From contig CAZUBK010000001.1 in assembly GCA_964618725.1 (NCBI GenBank), positions 68,878 through 132,877 on the forward strand: a stretch of 64,000 nucleotides of DNA, given 5' to 3'. The notes beneath the pieces are model-generated. The model was not told the origin of the DNA and ran no database searches. It worked only from the letters and a program-made list of their open reading frames with translations. Every line of letters starts with the position of its first letter. Within the stretch, counting starts at the first letter, position 1. Positions 3,742 through 44,672 of the stretch are shown one piece after another. The DNA is from an uncultured Pseudomonadales bacterium (GTDB lineage Bacteria > Patescibacteriota > Microgenomatia > UBA1400 > Chazhemtobacteraceae). The position numbers and the translations under genes are program-made.

Positions 3742-3813
3742 GGGTTCGTAGCTCAATGGTAGAGCAATTCCCTCTTAAGGAAGCGGTTGTGGGTTCGACT
3801 CCCACCGGACCCA
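3742..3813 (+). tRNA. tRNA-Lys (anticodon CTT)
   Basis: Acceptor gggttcg/cggaccc, anticodon loop ctcttaa, T-arm gtggg ttcgact cccac. Confidence 0.8.
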
Positions 3814-3878: not shown

Positions 3879-3952
3879 GCACCCGTAGCTCAGCTGGATA
3901 GAGCATCTGACTTCGGATCAGAGGGTCGGGGGTTCAAATCCCTCCGGGTGCA
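3879..3952 (+). tRNA. tRNA-Arg (anticodon TCG)
   Basis: Acceptor gcacccg/cgggtgc, anticodon stem tctga/tcaga with loop cttcgga, T-arm ggttcaaatcc. Confidence 0.8.
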
Positions 3953-11094: not shown

Positions 11095-11178
11095 GCCGAG
11101 GTGGCGAAATGGTATACGCACTGGATTTAGGATCCAGCGGGGAAACCCATGGAGGTTCAAGTCCTCTCCTCGGCACCC
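11095..11178 (+). tRNA. tRNA-Leu (anticodon TAG), type II with long variable arm
   Basis: Acceptor gccgagg/cctcggc, anticodon stem ctgga/tccag with loop tttagga, variable arm cggggaaacccatg, T-arm ggagg ttcaagt cctct. Confidence 0.8.
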
Positions 11179-16681: not shown

Positions 16682-17788
16682 TTAGGCTAGTTGTTCCCAC
16701 GGTAGATGGGCAGGTCCGAAATGGCCATAACTTGCGGTTTGACGATAGATGGGTCGGCGAAGGTCAAACTTGGTGATGATACCTCCCACTGATAAGTCGA
16801 GTAAATTCCAAGCAAAATCGTTAATGACTTTGTCTGACTGGTTCGAGGTACCAAAAGTTTCAATTGCCTTACCTACTGGTTGACGATGGCCGATGGCATA
16901 GGCCAATTGAACTTCACAACGGTCGGCAAGTTTCTGGGCCACTATATTCTTGGCGATATAACGCGCGGCATAAGCAGCAGAGCGATCAACCTTAGTCGGA
17001 TCTTTACCGGAAAAGCAACCGCCGCCGATTCGACCCATTCCACCATAGGTATCGACAACAATTTTGCGGCCAGTAACCCCGGTGTCAGAATACGGGCCAC
17101 CGATTTCCCAGGCGCCTGTACCATTGAAAATGACTTGGGATGGCTTAATGGCAGGTAAATGATATTCCTCTAGTAAAGGGGAGACAATGAGTCTGAAAAG
17201 TTGGTCTTTAACTTCCTCTTTCTTAACTTTAGGATCATGAGGTTTGGCAAGGACGACGGTAACGACTTGCTCTGGCTCACCTTTTTGACTGTACGAGACG
17301 GTTACCTGAGACTTGCCGTCAGGACGAAGATAGGTTAGCTCATTTTGGGCTAGTTCATCGAGGCGGCGGACAAGCGCGTGCGAAAGAGAAATAGGGAGAG
17401 GCATGAGCGACTTTGTTTCATTGGTGGCATAACCAAACATCATTCCCTGATCTCCCGCCCCGCCATCATCTACACCAAGGGCGATATCAGGAGACTGTTG
17501 GTGGATATAGACGTTGAAATTTGTTTCAGGACCAAAATTAAAGATTTTCTGAGTATAGCCGAGGTCATTAATGACAGCCTTAGCGATATTGACATATTGG
17601 AGTGGCTTGGGGCAGGTGATCTCACCGGCTAGCACCAATTTATTTGTAGTAACCAGGGTCTCACAGGCGACACGTGATTGAGAATCAACGGTGAGAGCGG
17701 CATCAAGAATGGCGTCGCTTACTTGATCACAGATTTTGTCCGGGTGACCGGCACAGACTGACTCCGATGAAAAGAGGGAGTATTGCAT
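16682..17788 (-). CDS. metK: S-adenosylmethionine synthetase
   Basis: [40 protein letters not shown], and a 368-aa length typical of MetK. Confidence 0.9.
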   Translation of the reverse strand: [368 protein letters not shown]

Positions 17789-17911
17789 TTTAGTTTTCCT
17801 CTAATTAATAAGGCTTGTCATTTTGGCACCGCGTCCTGCATAAGGCTCGGTTGCCGGTCCCGTTGAGGGACTCTCTTGACAGTGAAACCATAGTAACATA
17901 ATGGGGAGTGA
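17789..17911 (-). promoter_or_regulatory. Structured metK leader (candidate SAM-responsive riboswitch-like element)
   Basis: Minus-strand leader CUGUCAAGAGAGUCCCUCAACGGGACCGGCAACCGAGCCUUAUGCAGGACGCGGUGCCAAAAUGACA. P1 is UGUCA/UGACA and encloses two hairpins. CAAGAGAG, GGCAACC and GGUGCCAA resemble S-box blocks. The RBS GAGGAAAA follows. Confidence 0.3.
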
Positions 17912-18211
17912 TTAAGAGATGCCTAAGTGTTTGTGAATCTTACAACTGACATGCTCAAGATACCAATTGAGGACGACGACCGTCTTTAGATCGAGAGCTG
18001 CTGCGATTTTGGGAATAAGATTTTTACTTGGAAGACGTTTGCCACTTTCGATTAGGGTGATAAAACTACGAGAAGTCTGACAAGAAATGGCGACTTCTTC
18101 GGCGGTTAGGCCCTGTTTTTTTCGTTCGTGTTTTAGTTGTTCTCCAAATGATTTATGCATAGCAATAGGGCTTAATAGTATAGGCAAATAAATTTTAAAG
18201 CAACTGTTCAT
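17912..18211 (-). CDS. XRE-family helix-turn-helix transcriptional regulator
   Basis: HTH QGLTAEEVAISCQTSRSFITLIESGKRLPS. The likely true start is the internal Met at ~18160 (82 aa). Confidence 0.65.
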   Translation of the reverse strand: MNSCFKIYLPILLSPIAMHKSFGEQLKHERKKQGLTAEEVAISCQTSRSFITLIESGKRLPSKNLIPKIAAALDLKTVVVLNWYLEHVSCKIHKHLGIS

Positions 18212-18261
18212 ATAGCTGTACCTATTGACAGGTCTTTTAATTCTGATTAACTTGAGAGTAG

Positions 18262-18277
18262 GTTACAGTTCTGTAAC
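18262..18277. promoter_or_regulatory. Palindromic operator-like site GTTACAGTTCTGTAAC
   Basis: Perfect 6-bp inverted repeat GTTACA/TGTAAC in the divergent region between the XRE regulator and the histidine kinase operon. A near-identical site lies at 20526..20543. Confidence 0.5.
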
Positions 18278-18395
18278 TGAGTCTAGCATCTATCTACTTT
18301 ATTAAAAGACTCACAATAAGTAAACAGATTAATTCAGCTTTATGTGGAGAGGATTGAGCGAAGGGACTTAATTAAGAAACTTTAGAAAAAAATCG

Positions 18396-20132
18396 ATGAA
18401 ACTTGCCCCGGTTCCCAAAAATGAGGTTCAACGCTTAACCTCGCTATACAGCCTTGGTCTATTAGATACTCCACCGGAAGAGCGGTTTGATCTAATCACT
18501 AGAACAACTAATAGGATCTTTCATACTCCGATTTCAACCTTGACACTGGTGGATGCGAAACGGGAGTGGTTTAAGTCTTTACAAGGCTTAGCCACTCGTG
18601 AGGGAGATAGGGCAGTGTCTTTTTGCGGCCATTCTCTTTTAGCACCCGATATCTTTGTTGTTCCTGATACAAAGAAGGACGATCGATTTGCTGACAATCC
18701 TTGGGTCACCGGGAAACCCTATGTGCGATTCTATGCGGGAGTGCCGGTTTTGAGTCCCGATAAAGAAAGGATCGGGGTTTTGTGTATTAAGGATACTCGT
18801 CCACGACAGTTCTCAAAAGGCGATCAAGGAATCCTGAAAGGATTGGCTTCTTGGGCTGAATTGGAAATCCATTCTCGTAACTTGAGTTTAGCCCTTCGAG
18901 ATAGTCTGAAAAAAATAACGGGGCGGAGAGGTCAGACAAAGGAGTTCGATCGATTGAGTAAGTTAGAAAAAGAATCAAAAAAGGCATTGGTCAGGGTGAT
19001 GAGAGATATGGAAGTGATTCTTAATGAGGTTGAACAAGATAAAGCCAAAGATGAAGCAGTGATAACAAATATTAGTGAAGGGCTAATCGCTATCGACGAT
19101 CATGGAAAAGTAATGATTGTCAGCAAAGTAGCTGAAGACCTATTGGGGTGGAAACATAACGAGATGATTGGGAAAAAGTTCACCGGACTGAACCTCGAAG
19201 ATGAAGAGAGAAATTTCTTACCACCAGATAGGCGGCCTATTTCGCTAGCTATGACGACTGGTGAAATAATCAGAGGTACATATTTCTTTGTCGGAAAAGA
19301 CAAAACTAGATTTCCAATGGCCTTGACTACAACTCCGATTAGACTCAAGGGAGAAGTTGTAGGATTTATCGTGATGATTCGTGATATATCGAAAGAGACT
19401 GAAGTAATTAATGCCAAGAGTGAGTTTGTATCGTTGGCCTCGCATCAACTGCGAACACCGCTTGGATTAATCAAGTGGTATTTAGAAGCTATGAAACATG
19501 AGGCTTGCTTTGGTCAAGCACCTATGATAACACGAAGATACATAAATGAGGTTTATAAGAATAATGAGCGGGTATTGAGTCTGGTGCGAGATTTATTATC
19601 TGTTTCTCGGATTGATCAAGGGCGCATTAAGAATCAGCCAAAACCGGTAGATGTAACGGTCGTGGTAGGGGATGTGGTAAAACAATTACAGGTATTGACC
19701 CGCAAGAAAAAGGTGGCTTTGAGGTTGGTGATTTTGAGTTCTAAGATTCCGAAAATCAAAATAGATATTTTGCGACTTCGTGAAACGATAGAAAACCTAA
19801 TAGTAAATGCCATTGAGTATTCTAAAGCTCTAAAGTCTGTCACCGTCAGCGTTAAAAGACGGGGCGGTGCAATCTTAATCAGCGTCCGGGATGCGGGAAT
19901 AGGAATTACGAAGGAAGACCAAAAGAAGATCTTTAACAAGTTCTTTAGGTCGGAAAAGGCAGTTCAATTTAATCCTGAGGGGACGGGACTTGGATTGTAT
20001 GTGGTCAAGTCTTACGTAGAAGGGTGGGGAGGTAAAGTATCGGTTGCCAGTACTGAAGGGAAGGGGTCAATTTTCACAATCAGTTTACCGATTAAGAAAA
20101 GGAAGAGACAAAAAGGAGGTGAAGTGAAGTGA
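18396..20132 (+). CDS. GAF/PAS sensor histidine kinase
   Basis: N-terminal GAF-like region, PAS-like ISEGLIAIDDHGKVMIVSKVAEDLLGW, HisKA H-box EFVSLASHQLRTPL, and HATPase N/G boxes NLIVNAIEYS...GTGLGLYVV. Confidence 0.8.
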   Translation: MKLAPVPKNEVQRLTSLYSLGLLDTPPEERFDLITRTTNRIFHTPISTLTLVDAKREWFKSLQGLATREGDRAVSFCGHSLLAPDIFVVPDTKKDDRFADNPWVTGKPYVRFYAGVPVLSPDKERIGVLCIKDTRPRQFSKGDQGILKGLASWAELEIHSRNLSLALRDSLKKITGRRGQTKEFDRLSKLEKESKKALVRVMRDMEVILNEVEQDKAKDEAVITNISEGLIAIDDHGKVMIVSKVAEDLLGWKHNEMIGKKFTGLNLEDEERNFLPPDRRPISLAMTTGEIIRGTYFFVGKDKTRFPMALTTTPIRLKGEVVGFIVMIRDISKETEVINAKSEFVSLASHQLRTPLGLIKWYLEAMKHEACFGQAPMITRRYINEVYKNNERVLSLVRDLLSVSRIDQGRIKNQPKPVDVTVVVGDVVKQLQVLTRKKKVALRLVILSSKIPKIKIDILRLRETIENLIVNAIEYSKALKSVTVSVKRRGGAILISVRDAGIGITKEDQKKIFNKFFRSEKAVQFNPEGTGLGLYVVKSYVEGWGGKVSVASTEGKGSIFTISLPIKKRKRQKGGEVK

Positions 20133-20500
20133 AGAAAATACTAATTGTAGAAGACGAACTAGCGTACTTAAAATTACTTAATTCTCAATTGACAGGGAAG
20201 GGATATAGAGTAATCGAGGCAACTGACGGGGAAAAGGGACTAGCTAAAGCCAGAAGCGAGAAACCCGATTTGATTTTGCTTGATATCAGAATGCCGGTTA
20301 TGGATGGGCTGGCGATGCTAGATCGGCTAAGAAAAGAGGAATGGGGTAAGAAAGTTAAGGTAATAATTCTCACCAATCTTGAACCTGATGACAAGATAAT
20401 CGGGAAAGTCGTCAAGGACAGACCGTTGTACTATTTTGTGAAAAGCGATATTCAGCTTGAGACGTTGTTGAAGAAAGTCAAGGAATTGCTTGCAGACTAA
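20129..20500 (+). CDS. Stand-alone response regulator receiver domain (CheY-like)
   Basis: GTG start overlaps the kinase stop after RBS aaggaggtg. KILIVEDE...DLILLDIRMPVMDG...K. No output domain. Confidence 0.8.
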   Translation: MKKILIVEDELAYLKLLNSQLTGKGYRVIEATDGEKGLAKARSEKPDLILLDIRMPVMDGLAMLDRLRKEEWGKKVKVIILTNLEPDDKIIGKVVKDRPLYYFVKSDIQLETLLKKVKELLAD

Positions 20501-20554: not shown

Positions 20555-23500
20555 ATGAAGATCCTATCGCCAGTCCAGACGGCCAAATTGCTTGGGGTTT
20601 CTATTGAAGATTTGCACCTATTGGAGGAGCAAGATTTGCTTCATTCCTCAAAGGATCACAAAGGAAGAATAATATACTCGCCTGAGGAAGTGGCCCAAAT
20701 AAAATCTAGGAAGGTACCCTCCATTTCTGAAGAAGCAGAGTTGGTTAATATCCAAGTTCAGAGGGAGACGGCGTATTCGGTTACAACAACGAAGAAGGTG
20801 CTTTTCTTTGTAGGTGGGGTGGTTTCCTCATACATCCTGTTGATCATTGTGTTTACGGTTCTATTCATTATCAATCCTCTACAAACGGCAGGTTGGCTTG
20901 GTTATGTTAGGGGTAATAGTCTTACCAGCAGCCTATCTCAAGCAGAAACACGAGATATGGTACTCGGGGCGAATACGGATGGAGCTATCTCAAGACCGAC
21001 TAGATTAATGCGAACTTTCTTACAACCGGCGTCGAGGGCGTCACTTGGTATCGTCAAGGCGGTTAGTCCTAATGCATATCAGGAGGTAGCCAAAATCACG
21101 ATTCTTGATCCTAATGATGTTTTTGCGGTGGAGAACGAAGTTATTTCACCTCAGATGACGCTTAGGATCTCGGATAACTCAAAGCTAGAGATAACCGATC
21201 CAGTGCAGATACCGAACCTTAACTCCGAGTATCTTCAAGGTCTACAACCGGGTAGTAATCCGGGTGATATTGCGATTGTGGGAGATACACCAAGCCTCAG
21301 TTTGGTACCGGTTACGAATGTCACTGCAACGGGACTAACTAATGCAAATCTTTCTGGCTCAGCTGGAATAACTAATGCTAACTTAGCCAACTCGTCTATT
21401 ACGATTAATACATCAAGTCCTCTCTCAGGTGGAGGGGCGGTAGCTCTTGGTAGTTCTCTTACTTTGACTTGTCCTACCTGCACGAACGGGTCGTCGCTAT
21501 TTACGGCGGACAGTACAGATACTCTGACCAACAAAACAATTGATGTAACTTTAAATACCATTACTGGCCTGACGGCAAGTAACTTAGCAGCCGGAGATTT
21601 CTCAAGCAAAATTACGAGCGGAACTTATTCTATCGATATTACCGGTAGTATTGCTTCGGCGGTCGACTTTACCGGGTCATTGGCTGGAGACGTCAGTGGA
21701 ACACAAAACCTAACGACTGTGACAAAGATTAACGGTACAACATTGGGGTCGACGACGGCTACTTCGGGTAACCTGCTAATAGGGAGTGGTAGCCAGTGGG
21801 TGACACAGACAGTGAGTAATGATGCCACGATTAACAGTTTGGGGGTGCTGACGCTAAAGAATGTTGGTACCTCAGGGACATACGGATCGGGGTCTTTAGT
21901 CCCTGTTTTTACAACTGACGCAAAAGGAAGGATATCGGGGGTCACAAATACAACCATCTCTGGCTTGAGTCCGACTAATTTTAGCTACGCCAATATTTCT
22001 CAGTGGACAAATGATGCAGGATATGTGACATCTCTTTCAGAAGCGGACACCCTGGCGACAGTGACCGGGCGCGGGGCAACGACGAGCAACGCACTCACAC
22101 TATCAAATGTGGCTAATGCGATTACCGCGGGGACATTGACGATTCAGGCTGAAAACTTCACTGATCTAACGGGAAGTGGCTTGTCTAATACGGCAGGGGT
22201 TTTGGGCGTGAATCTAACGACTTCGGGGACGACGGGGTCAACGACGAGCAATTCTGGTCTAGAAGTATCTACATCAGGACTAACCTTACTTAAGGGATGT
22301 ACTGACGAGGAAATTCTGAAGTACACTGATGCGGGTGGCTGGGCGTGTGCCGCTGATGTTAGTGGGGGTACTCCGGCTCTAAGCACTATTGGAGCGGCGG
22401 TTGGAGCCAACTTAATTAATAGTGGAGATAATGCTCAGATCTGGAATTGGGGTCTGACAACGGCAGCAAAAACGGCCTTTACTTTTGGAGAAAATACTGC
22501 AGCGATTAACGGCGCAGGTTCGCAATATATCCTTAGTTTATCGACTCTCTCGGGCTCGACTGCAGCTCCTTTGATTGTATCGGCCAGGGGGAATGCGATT
22601 ATCACCACCTCAGAGACTGGCGGTTTAACTTTTGGAAACACAACGGCCAATACAGCTATCACCTTACAATCTGGGACAGGAACGATCAATATCGGAACCG
22701 ATGCGAATGCCAAAATACTTACTTTGGGGAATAGTACTGGAGCAACGGCGGTAAATATCGATTCGGGGTCGGGCAATATCAACTTCACGGTTAACGGAAC
22801 GGGGTCCAGTGGGAAGGTTCAAATAGGTAATAGCAATACAATTACTCCTGACTTGTTAGTTTTGGATAACGGGACGGCTGACCCAGCAGGAGTCAATGGA
22901 GGGATGTACTACAACACCAGTACAAATAAGTTTCGTTGTTACCAAAATAGTGGCTGGTCTAACTGTATTACTCCCCCGGGCTCGGATCTTCAAACTACAG
23001 CTACCTACGGGACAAATGATAGTTTGGTGAATGTGGGTGTGACACAAGTGACAATTGCGGCTGTTTCTATCACTCCTGCTTCTGTGACTGGAGATATCTA
23101 CGTTCGAGGAAGAGTGGAGATCTTTAGTAGCAATAATACCGACCAAAGTTTAGTTTTGTCTATTGAAGACGATGCAACGTGTACCGGGAATACGGTTGAG
23201 ACCAATACAATTACAATTACGGCTTCGAATGGAACTCAAATAGGGAACTTTGAGCTTGCTGATGTTGTGGTTGACGCCGGTGCCTCTGCCCACTCGTATT
23301 CATTATGTGCCTCAACGGCTACGGGAGATAGCGATCTTCGACTTTATGAGATGTTTGCTACAGTGATTGATACAGGAGCAGACTTGGCAGAGATATACAC
23401 CACTGACGAGGAAAACATCGAGGTGGGAGATGTGGTTTCGCTTGAGAGTGGCTTGCAAGCGGGGATGAAGAAAAGTCAAACCGCCTATGATCAAAGTGTT

Positions 23501-24307
23501 TTGGGGATTGTTTCGACTAGACCTGGATTAATAATTGGCGATGTCGGCAAAGAAGGAGTGAGGGCTTTGCCAGTAGCCATGTCTGGTCGGGTTCCAGTAA
23601 AGGTATCGACGACGAACGGAAGAATTGATGCGGGTGATTATTTGACGACTTCTGAGATACCAGGGGTAGCAATGAAATCAACAAAGGGGGGAGCAATCAT
23701 CGGTATCGCAATGAATTCTTTCGACGGGGAGGGGATTGGTCGGATTTTGGCTTTTGCTAAGAATGGGTCGTCAACGGAAACTGTTGCCAACGTGGAAAAG
23801 ATTGCCACCAGCTCAGCTAGTCTGATTGAAGGCAATATTCTTAATCGGGTGATTCAAATCATTACTGACTTGTTTAAAAATTCAGTTGAGTTCTTGGGTA
23901 GTGTGGTCTTTCACAGTGATATTACTTTCTTAGGTAGACCAACATTTAACAAGGATACGGCGGGATATGCATTGATAAAGGCAGGAAGTCGTGAGGTTAA
24001 TATCAGTTTTGAAAAAGCATATACCAAGAAGCCGGTGATAACAGTCAGCCTTAGTCTGTCAGAAGGTGTCAAACTAGACGATCTACCGTTGTTTGCGGTG
24101 TATGAGAGTAGTTCGCAGGGCTTTAAGATTAGATTATCGAGAGCAACTATTTCGGATCTTCAGTTCTCCTGGATAGCTATCGAGGCGGCGGGAGAGGTGG
24201 TGTTGTCGACTGAGTCAAGTATGCTTATGGAGATGACAGGGAGTTTAGAGGAGGCAACGGATAGTGATGCAACAGTGGCCAGCCAGAGTGCCGAGATTGG
24301 GCTTTGA
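20555..24307 (+). CDS. Giant (1250 aa) membrane-anchored Thr/Ser/Gly/Asn-rich repetitive surface protein with N-terminal cytoplasmic HTH-like segment
   Basis: N-terminal TAKLLGVSIEDLHLLEEQDLL (MerR/excisionase-like HTH), one TM (VLFFVGGVVSSYILLIIVFTVLFII), then ~1100 aa of low-complexity T/S/G/N repeats (TGLTNANLSGSAGITNANL...) and a conserved C-terminal region (GIVSTRPGLIIGD...GDYLTTSEIPGVAMK). Confidence 0.6.
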   Translation: MKILSPVQTAKLLGVSIEDLHLLEEQDLLHSSKDHKGRIIYSPEEVAQIKSRKVPSISEEAELVNIQVQRETAYSVTTTKKVLFFVGGVVSSYILLIIVFTVLFIINPLQTAGWLGYVRGNSLTSSLSQAETRDMVLGANTDGAISRPTRLMRTFLQPASRASLGIVKAVSPNAYQEVAKITILDPNDVFAVENEVISPQMTLRISDNSKLEITDPVQIPNLNSEYLQGLQPGSNPGDIAIVGDTPSLSLVPVTNVTATGLTNANLSGSAGITNANLANSSITINTSSPLSGGGAVALGSSLTLTCPTCTNGSSLFTADSTDTLTNKTIDVTLNTITGLTASNLAAGDFSSKITSGTYSIDITGSIASAVDFTGSLAGDVSGTQNLTTVTKINGTTLGSTTATSGNLLIGSGSQWVTQTVSNDATINSLGVLTLKNVGTSGTYGSGSLVPVFTTDAKGRISGVTNTTISGLSPTNFSYANISQWTNDAGYVTSLSEADTLATVTGRGATTSNALTLSNVANAITAGTLTIQAENFTDLTGSGLSNTAGVLGVNLTTSGTTGSTTSNSGLEVSTSGLTLLKGCTDEEILKYTDAGGWACAADVSGGTPALSTIGAAVGANLINSGDNAQIWNWGLTTAAKTAFTFGENTAAINGAGSQYILSLSTLSGSTAAPLIVSARGNAIITTSETGGLTFGNTTANTAITLQSGTGTINIGTDANAKILTLGNSTGATAVNIDSGSGNINFTVNGTGSSGKVQIGNSNTITPDLLVLDNGTADPAGVNGGMYYNTSTNKFRCYQNSGWSNCITPPGSDLQTTATYGTNDSLVNVGVTQVTIAAVSITPASVTGDIYVRGRVEIFSSNNTDQSLVLSIEDDATCTGNTVETNTITITASNGTQIGNFELADVVVDAGASAHSYSLCASTATGDSDLRLYEMFATVIDTGADLAEIYTTDEENIEVGDVVSLESGLQAGMKKSQTAYDQSVLGIVSTRPGLIIGDVGKEGVRALPVAMSGRVPVKVSTTNGRIDAGDYLTTSEIPGVAMKSTKGGAIIGIAMNSFDGEGIGRILAFAKNGSSTETVANVEKIATSSASLIEGNILNRVIQIITDLFKNSVEFLGSVVFHSDITFLGRPTFNKDTAGYALIKAGSREVNISFEKAYTKKPVITVSLSLSEGVKLDDLPLFAVYESSSQGFKIRLSRATISDLQFSWIAIEAAGEVVLSTESSMLMEMTGSLEEATDSDATVASQSAEIGL

Positions 24308-34789: not shown

Positions 34790-34860
34790 AGCGGGATAGG
34801 GGAATTGAACCCCTCACCACACCTTGGGAAGGTGTTGTTATACCGATTAACTAATCCCGC
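34790..34860 (-). tRNA. tRNA-Gly (anticodon CCC)
   Basis: Minus-strand cloverleaf: acceptor gcgggat/atcccgc, anticodon stem acacc/ggtgt with loop ttcccaa, T-arm agggg ttcaatt cccct. Confidence 0.8.
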
Positions 34861-44598: not shown

Positions 44599-44672
44599 TG
44601 CTCGCGCCTGGATTCGAACCAGGGACCTTTGCAATGTGAATGCAACGCTCTAACCAGCTGAGCTACGCGAGC
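44599..44672 (-). tRNA. tRNA-Val (anticodon CAC)
   Basis: Minus-strand cloverleaf: acceptor gctcgcg/cgcgagc, anticodon stem ttgca/tgcaa with loop ttcacat, T-arm ccctggttcgaatccagg. Confidence 0.8.

Follow-up and report, generated by a model that had tools for sequence, protein, structure and literature searches.

A probable SAM-I/IV-type riboswitch of compact architecture upstream of metK in a Microgenomates-group bacterium

SAM-I (the S-box, RF00162), SAM-IV (RF00634) and SAM-I/IV (RF01725) are families of S-adenosylmethionine (SAM) riboswitches that belong to the same Rfam clan, CL00012, and share a common core. SAM-I/IV is set apart by a P2 helix without an internal loop and by the lack of an evident pseudoknot at the tip of P2 (Weinberg et al. 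2010; PMC2864571). In its canonical architecture, known from the seed alignment and from the paper on the SAM-IV cryo-electron microscopy structure, there is an optional hairpin in the junction, P4 lies 3′ of P1, and the tail pairs with the P3 loop to form a pseudoknot designated PK-2. Here we describe an element in the leader of metK, the gene for S-adenosylmethionine synthetase, within a window of 64 kb (the whole stretch of DNA that was analysed: 64,000 nt of contig CAZUBK010000001.1, positions 68,878 to 132,877). All features of the element lie on the minus strand, and their positions are those of the window. The leader comprises 123 nt (17911-17789) between the stop codon TAA (17914-17912) of an XRE-type open reading frame (ORF) and the ATG of metK (17788-17786), exactly as the initial annotation of this DNA had delimited it. 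The element is, in our view, likely to be a SAM-I/IV-type riboswitch of the SAM clan that represses the translation of metK in a feedback manner. With its plain P2 and no evident pseudoknot at the P2 tip, it displays both features that define the SAM-I/IV class, for which a crystal structure was reportedly obtained by Trausch et al. in 2014, according to a paper citing that work.

The family assignment comes from a scan of the entire window with Rfam 15 models at gathering thresholds, combined with a permissive local scan (E<=10) of positions 17650-18050. An Infernal scan of this kind had been proposed in the initial annotation, and it returned a single class, SAM-I/IV, which exceeded the gathering score. 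The match to RF01725 (17887-17781) is the sole riboswitch reported in the window; it scores 43.2 bits (gathering score 41.1), spans model positions 1-99 of 99, and has a local E of 7e-6. The SAM-I model scores lower at this site and was suppressed as the weaker match of the clan. In the permissive scan nothing outside clan CL00012 was listed, and the SAM-II, SAM-III, SAM-V, SAM-VI and SAM/SAH (S-adenosylhomocysteine) models gave no match.

According to the alignment with RF01725, the element is made up of four helices: P1 (C)UGUC/GACA(A)G, P2 GUCCC-UCAAC-GGGAC, P3 GGCAACCGAGCC...GGACGCGGUGCC and P4 CCUU-AUUAAUUA-GAGG. The 5′ strand of P1, CUGUC (17878-17882), places G17880 at the position of SAM-I A6 and U17879 at that of U7. 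It is followed by J1/2 AAGAGA (17872-17877), in which G17875 and A17874 correspond to G11 and A12, and which agrees with CAAGAG, a block that is invariant in the Rfam consensus. P2 (17857-17871) is a hairpin of 5 bp with a 5-nt loop, having neither an internal loop nor a kink-turn. P3 (17825-17855) is aligned by Rfam as GGC-AA-CCG-A-GCCU[UAUGC]AGGA-CG-CGG-U-GCC; its AA bulge (A17852/A17851) corresponds to A45/A46 and its bulged U17828 to U57. J3/1 AAAAU (17820-17824) leads into the 3′ strand of P1, GACAAG (17814-17819), in which A17818 is the equivalent of A87, C17817 stands where SAM-I has U88, and A17815 forms a bulge. P4 (17798-17813) directly adjoins P1 and is aligned to the P4 of RF01725. 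The leader ends with the A-rich linker AAAACUAAA, followed by the start codon AUG (together 17786-17797).

The pocket and core nucleotides G11, A12, G43, C44, A45, A46, C47, G56, U57, G58, C59, U7 and A87 are all kept in the window. Everything that the initial annotation had read in the leader could be located: the P1 strands UGUCA (17881-17877) and UGACA (17820-17816), which do pair, the hairpin GUCCC-UCAAC-GGGAC at 17871-17857, a second hairpin GGCAACCG...CGGUGCC at 17855-17825, and the S-box-like blocks CAAGAGAG, GGCAACC and GGUGCCAAAAU. The ribosome-binding site GAGGAAAA had been placed just 3′ of P1. It does begin 13 nt 3′ of P1, at 17801, but to describe it only as lying 3′ of P1 misses that it is the 3′ strand of P4.

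Of the described systems, SAM-I/IV is the closest. Both share J1/2 CAAGAG, a P3 of the form GGCAACC...GGUGCC with the AA bulge and the bulged U, the plain P2 without an evident pseudoknot at its tip, and a P4 that lies 3′ of P1, outside the junction. In both, the element stands upstream of a SAM-metabolism gene, and the gathering score is passed. An optional hairpin between P3 and P1 is found in some seed sequences, as it is in three relatives of the window element. On the other hand, P1 has a G-C pair two below the junction here, where SAM-I/IV has an invariant A-U, and PK-2, readily seen in canonical seeds, is not conserved in the clade to which the window belongs. The Shine-Dalgarno (SD) sequence is the 3′ strand of P4 here instead of being placed in the tail or in PK-2; in seed sequences an SD-like GGAG lies in the tail beyond P4. 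Finally, the loop sequence of P4 is conserved in the clade, whose members score at or below the family threshold, half of them being missed.

SAM-I has the ligand-pocket nucleotides in common with the window element and, as the shared core implies, the P1/P3 minor-groove architecture. metK is its classic target, and among the loci that we fetched SAM-I precedes metK in many Firmicutes. However, the window element has no junction P4, no P2 kink-turn, no PK-1 pseudoknot and no terminator/antiterminator platform, and its J3/1 is only 5 nt long, with no hairpin. The SAM-I aptamer takes up ~95-110 nt compared with ~70 nt here, its A6-U88 pair is replaced by G-C, and its model scores lower. The earlier view that the leader is too short for a canonical SAM-I is supported. 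SAM-IV, like the window element, has a peripheral hairpin 3′ of P1 in addition to the shared core, but its P2a/P2b internal loop, PK-1 and PK-2 are not conserved here, and there is no candidate partner for PK-1. SAM-III (the SMK box) and other translational SAM riboswitches resemble the arrangement proposed here in their logic, namely a SAM-dependent sequestration of the metK SD by an anti-SD. SAM-III, though, has an unrelated fold in which the helix between SD and anti-SD contributes to the ligand pocket, while the hairpin holding the SD here would stand outside the aptamer.

The element was also compared with orthologous leaders. The GTDB/JGI contig collections contained no MetK closer than 62% identity, and the orthologous leaders were found via a protein database. 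One NCBI/Logan entry is identical to the MetK of the window, and relatives at 63-75% identity carry the names Microgenomates group bacterium or Candidatus Shapirobacteria, which places the source of the window in the Candidate Phyla Radiation (CPR; Patescibacteria). Our comparison set consisted of 12 further distinct leaders from contigs of twelve Microgenomates-group relatives (MetK 65-75% identical), 13 leaders including that of the window. A common order of blocks is found in 12/12 leaders: a -10 element, (G)CUGUC-AAGAG, P2, GGCAACCGAG, a variable distal P3, CGCGGUGCC, AAAAU, GACAAG, CCUCU, GUUAUUAAUU, AGAGG, an A-rich linker and AUG. UGUC in the 5′ strand of P1 is invariant in the clade, GACAAG is invariant in all 13 leaders, P4 occurs in all 13 and J3/1 reads AAAAU in nine, while P2 is always a plain hairpin, of 4-9 bp in the orthologs. 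Inspection of the 13 leaders revealed variable L2 loops with no consistent partner for a pseudoknot at the P2 tip; nor was there, by eye, any consistent complementarity for L2-L3 kissing or for pairing of L3 with the P4 loop. In the window and in every ortholog, the element immediately precedes metK. The genes upstream vary and lie on either strand (among them those for glycosyltransferases, a Tricorn-like protein, LAB_N and G6PD), which shows that the element is tied to metK rather than to the XRE gene.

The extra hairpin mentioned above replaces the simple J3/1 in L178 (1371-1505), L181 (1368-1507) and L184 (1372-1506), where it lies between P3 and the 3′ strand of P1 and turns the junction into a four-way one, with no kink-turn. 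These three are more distant leaders of Microgenomates type, and none of them reaches a Rfam SAM model at E<=1. In L178 and L184, the 3′ strand of this junction hairpin ends in an SD mimic, GGAGG.

Comparative evidence for the structure was obtained with a covariance model, R1, built from ten leaders and used for the structural alignment of twelve. Standard pairs fill 95.8% of the paired cells, compared with 87.2% in shuffled alignments and 33-50% when the registers are slid. The covariation score is 0.308; shuffling gives 0.146, with 0/500 shuffles reaching the observed value, and slid registers give 0.03-0.07. Changes on both sides were seen at eight pairs, comprising all four modelled pairs of P2 (4/4), three of distal P3 and one of P4. 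The proximal P3 pairs are invariant, P1 is 100% paired with no double changes, and in P4 94.6% of the cells are paired. Since the R1 alignment is fitted to the model, we also ran RNAalifold on a plain MAFFT alignment, and it returned the same P1, P2, P3 and P4, with seven doubly changed pairs. Thus, a comparative alignment of metK leaders, another check that had been suggested at the outset, does reveal covariation in P2 and P3. Together with the RF01725 match, it bears out the original suggestion that the leader holds a SAM sensor akin to the S-box in divergent or minimal form. Model R1 found no second copy of the element in the 64-kb window.

An extended -10 element, TGtTACTAT, lies at 17890-17898 (TG at 17898-17897, TACTAT at 17895-17890). 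A TAnnnT hexamer ending 7-10 nt ahead of UGUC is present in 13/13 leaders but in only 28% of shuffled upstream regions. In most leaders the hexamer, which reads TAATAT in L181, is preceded by TGn, and L178, L181 and L184 also have a -35 element (TTGACA or TTGACT) at a distance of 17-18 nt. A generic sigma-70 scan that required both hexamers found no promoter, a result that fits a promoter of the extended -10 type. The spacing from the -10 element suggests that transcription starts close to A17883, which precedes P1 by one nucleotide. If so, the RNA probably accounts for ~100 of the 123 leader nucleotides, and the first ~28 nt (17911-17884) are probably promoter. There is no terminator-like site in 17600-18400 and no U-run after P2, P3 or P4. 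The stop codon of the XRE gene lies 14 nt ahead of the TG of the extended -10 element.

The position of the SD suggests how the element could act on metK. The SD AGAGG (17802-17798) is the 3′ strand of P4, and it lies in P4 in all 13 leaders, in each of which the anti-SD follows GACAAG at a spacing of 0 nt. In most relatives P4 is CCUCUG/UAGAGG, with an energy of -6.4 kcal/mol; in the window it is CCUU...GAGG, 3-4 nt shorter than in all close relatives. Conservation of the P4 loop (17803-17809; GUUAUUAAUU in most relatives) far exceeds that of L2 and L3, and the 5′ part of GUUAUUAAUU is complementary to J3/1 plus the 3′ strand of P1 (AAUGACA). An alternative hairpin, in which J3/1 and the 3′ strand of P1 pair with the anti-SD and the P4 loop, is predicted in 10/13 leaders at -1.8 to -5.6 kcal/mol, with a mean z of -1.2 over the 13. 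It is formed by AAUGACA with UGUUAUU in L173, L175 and L176 (-4.2 kcal/mol), by AAAGG with CCUUU in L163 (-3.3 kcal/mol), and by GGAGG with CCUCU in L178 and L184 (-5.6 kcal/mol). Such a hairpin would explain the unusual conservation of the P4 loop GUUAUUAAUU. Since the aptamer and P4 fill the 5′ untranslated region, no terminator is present, and the SD is paired in all orthologs, translational control fits best, and SAM-dependent repression of metK translation is the most likely and most economical reading.

In the mechanism that we propose, the mRNA would begin at P1 or 1-2 nt ahead of it, and its first ~70 nt would fold into the three-way junction of P1, P2 and P3 with the SAM-I pocket nucleotides. 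The anti-SD CCUU (CCUCU in relatives), with no spacer after P1, would pair with the SD AGAGG to form P4, 10 nt ahead of AUG. Binding of SAM would lock P1, with P4 stacked end-to-end upon it, and the ribosome-binding site would be shut. When SAM is scarce, P1 would fray, and in most relatives its freed 3′ strand, together with J3/1 (AAUGACA, or the SD-like AAAGG/GGAGG), may then pair with the anti-SD and the P4 loop, releasing the SD. The coupling could follow two routes: (i) coaxial stacking of the SAM-locked P1 on the adjoining P4 may stabilise P4; (ii) the alternative hairpin, being incompatible with both P1 and P4, may free the SD. The data show the match to the family, covariation in the helices of the aptamer, the retained core nucleotides, the place of the promoter and the hairpin between SD and anti-SD; we infer SAM as the ligand, the sign of the regulation and this coupling of P1 to P4.

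The 8-mer AGCCUUAU occurs twice in the leader, at 17840-17847 (the 5′ strand of distal P3 plus L3) and at 17808-17815 (the boundary between the 3′ strand of P1 and P4), and both copies include an anti-SD-like CCUU. As a general mechanism, competition for the anti-SD by J1/2 AAGAG acting as a mimic of the SD was rejected: the pairing amounts to 4 bp only, and L181 and L184, whose J1/2 reads AAGAA, could not form it.

Several results weigh against translational repression by a SAM-I/IV-type element. First, the RF01725 score exceeds the threshold by just 2 bits. That model is passed by 6/13 distinct leaders (43.2 bits in the window; 47.7, 46.5, 45.2, 44.9 and 41.3 bits in the others); L174 (40.5 bits) and L165 (30.1 bits) fall below the gathering score, and 5/13 leaders lack any Rfam SAM hit even at E<=1. 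Second, the leader taken by itself folds no better than chance (minimum free energy z = -1.17; 21/200 shuffles fold as well), and therefore the case for a real structure rests on other evidence. Given a transcript that starts near 17883, the upstream bases that pair in this single-sequence fold probably do not belong to the metK transcript. Third, P1 and P4 are nearly invariant, and therefore covariation speaks neither for nor against these two helices; the argument that they are real comes from the family model and from their conservation. Fourth, at -1.7 kcal/mol the P4 of the window is weak, and no formation of the alternative hairpin is predicted there (0.0). Fifth, in nearest-neighbour modelling of the switch (unconstrained, with P1 enforced, or with the 5′ strand of P1 held single) the SD was paired whether P1 was enforced or prevented, its unpaired fraction being <=0.27 in every case. 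SD accessibility is thus constant across the models, and a plain two-state secondary-structure switch is not evident. Finally, the G-C pair in P1 removes one of the two sulfonium-facing uridines, and therefore affinity or selectivity for SAM could differ. As a separate observation from the modelling, with P1 enforced the SD of the window is predicted to pair instead with CCUCU in metK codons 4-6.

Among the alternatives to P4-mediated repression, the one that survives best is a canonical SAM-I/IV mechanism with a PK-2 switch, in which L3 UGCA and the UGCA over the start codon would pair upon SAM binding and occlude AUG, P4 being merely structural. We computed duplex energies between the L3 loop and the tail, with the SD and the start codon included in the target. 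As a positive control, 22 canonical seeds gave a mean of -5.3 kcal/mol and a mean z of -1.25, many of them forming 5-7 bp. In the window, UGCA over the start codon (17784-17787), possibly the 3′ strand of a vestigial PK-2, matches L3 UGCA (17840-17837) at -3.6 kcal/mol, and its position 10 nt past P4 is near the 6-9 nt at which canonical seeds pair L3 with the tail. The L3 of the window pairs better with its own target than with 12/12 foreign targets (permutation p = 0.034, driven by the window locus), and the window alone has CAA as the second codon. Two relatives have longer matches, 6 bp between L3 and the start codon in L163 (AGUUCA:UGAACU) and 7 bp between L3 and the SD in L161 (UUUUCCU:AGGAAAA). 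However, the match in the window consists of 4 bp only, A17837 is already within the distal P3 stem, and 6% of shuffled loops do equally well or better, which is compatible with chance; as UGCA is self-complementary, one shared tetramer suffices to produce it. No duplex between L3 and the tail stronger than -1 kcal/mol forms in 9/13 leaders, the clade mean is -1.8 kcal/mol, and L3 loops as unlike as CAAAA and UUUUUU oppose an identical A-rich tail. PK-2 is therefore not conserved in the clade, and we regard a switch based on it as improbable, if the strongest of the competing explanations.

Another alternative concerns the ligand pocket. In SAM-I, the pocket is formed by A6, U7, C8, G11, A45, A46, C47, U57, G58, C59, A87, U88 and G89; the carbonyls of U7 and U88 face the SAM sulfonium, and A6, U7, A87 and U88 are listed as highly conserved. 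Montange et al. (2010) reportedly traced SAM/SAH discrimination to the A6-U88 and U7-A87 pairs. In the window U7-A87 is retained as U17879-A17818, and so is every other listed pocket nucleotide except the A6-U88 pair, whose equivalent is G17880-C17817. Judged from the sequence, the tandem of P1 pairs conserved in the clan is thus incomplete in the window. The replacement is not confined to this locus, as G-C is found in 13/13 leaders. In the family alignment of Weinberg et al. 2010 (PMC2864571) AU.CAAGA occurs 124 times and GU.CAAGA 0 times, and among the loci that we fetched the A6 position is A in 56/56 other SAM-clan-like metK leaders. Because the A-U pair is replaced, PK-2 is mostly absent in the clade and the platform is rearranged, we file the element as a variant, not as an ordinary member, of SAM-I/IV: a clade-specific variant that works like SAM-I/IV and descends from it, of a kind already known.

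A more far-reaching possibility, to which we give a low probability, is a Microgenomates-group subclass with a pseudoknot-free three-way-junction aptamer of ~70 nt, no peripheral tertiary domain and the sulfonium-facing pair changed from A-U to G-C. If this were true, it would rank with the earliest native riboswitch classes to be characterised in the CPR. If, in addition, the pocket were altered, through weaker SAM/SAH discrimination or a tuning to the SAM economy of an episymbiont, it would represent a natural minimal SAM-I-type sensor with changed recognition.

Less likely still is a changed or relaxed ligand specificity (for example, poor discrimination between SAM and SAH, or recognition of another adenosyl-sulfur compound) or a decaying relic. 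The G-C pair at a position that reads A-U in all canonical relatives inspected, the place of U7 and U88 opposite the sulfonium and the loss of peripheral tertiary elements would agree with such an interpretation. Yet a compensated Watson-Crick swap that is fixed over a deep clade (MetK identity down to 65%), with the other pocket nucleotides kept, argues for function and against decay. Moreover, a cytosine still presents a carbonyl in the minor groove, metK is the textbook target of SAM feedback, and the covariation of P2 and P3 contradicts relic status. The last alternative combines the fallback of the initial annotation, a terminator of the XRE gene, with a 3′ element of that gene or a chance intergenic fold. 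It could draw on the non-significant folding energy and on the XRE ORF being genuine and ending 24 nt ahead of the Rfam match, but we find it scarcely credible, being refuted by the comparative data: the element precedes metK behind unrelated upstream genes, some on the opposite strand, no terminator-like site or U-run follows its hairpins, the conserved -10 element between the upstream gene and P1 implies an RNA that starts at P1, and the Rfam match and covariation speak for the family.

A SAM riboswitch before metK is routine in kind; what stands out in the SAM-I/IV variant described here is the minimal architecture and the rewritten sulfonium-contact pair. The clade offers a natural experiment on how little periphery a SAM-I-type pocket needs and on the effect of G-C at the sulfonium-contact pair. 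The RNA is compact, ~100 nt including the platform, and directly testable. Gene regulation in the CPR is almost unstudied, and a classical metabolite-sensing RNA for SAM synthesis there constitutes the significance of the finding, if our reading holds. In the literature that we searched, the coverage of which was incomplete, we found no report of native riboswitches in Patescibacteria; what we did find on riboswitches in the CPR mentioned them solely as a prospective engineering tool. As half of the clade's metK riboswitches are under the Rfam threshold, too few of them appear in standard annotation; the missed members would be recovered with model R1 or with a new seed alignment.

Searches beyond the clade returned other kinds of leaders. 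In 160 non-Microgenomates loci, R1 produced weak hits alone, at 18-32 bits. No SAM riboswitch reached the gathering score before metK in L001, L002 and L081 (the closest MetK relatives in the GTDB/JGI contig collections, 58-62% identical, labelled uncultured Gammaproteobacteria metagenome-assembled genomes), and the R1 hit in L081 scored just 21.9 bits. A scan of viral contigs with the clade signature gave a single match, L190, which we dropped as a GC-rich chance match. L082 (1842-2000; Ga0233437_1000010, a 609-kb contig; MetK 56% identical) has a canonical SAM-I/IV of 53 bits with an AUC/GAU P1. Immediately ahead of its AUG there is a terminator-like hairpin, CCUCUUAAGUUGAGAGG followed by U7, the 5′ strand of which is perfectly complementary to the J3/1 insert CUUAAGAGG, an arrangement that resembles an explicit antiterminator or anti-sequestor. 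The leader of L083 (~1890-2000; MetK 57% identical) is SAM-clan-like (GUAUCAAGAG...GGCAACCC...GGGUGCC), with a junction hairpin, and is under every Rfam threshold, and L084 (1-119) contains a 5′-truncated SAM-I hit of 45.6 bits.

In the window itself, metK (17788-16682, minus strand) encodes a protein of 368 aa with three S-AdoMet synthetase Pfam domains (E = 4e-32 to 8e-61) and is the putative regulated gene. The XRE-type ORF upstream (18211-17912, minus strand) carries HTH_31 (E = 2e-10) and HTH_3 domains. Divergent from the XRE-metK pair, 18396-20500 on the plus strand holds two ORFs that overlap by 4 nt, one of 578 aa and histidine-kinase-like (by eye, with a GAF/PAS-like N-terminus and a HATPase-like C-terminus), the other of 123 aa and response-regulator-like. 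A further plus-strand ORF (20555-24307) encodes 1250 aa and could be a surface protein of a type common in CPR genomes; it combines a MerR-like helix-turn-helix at the N-terminus with a membrane segment and extended repeats rich in Thr/Ser/Gly. The Rfam scan also identified seven tRNA genes in the window, five on the plus strand (2-75, 2891-2964, 3742-3813, 3879-3952 and 11095-11175) and two on the minus strand (34790-34860 and 44599-44672).

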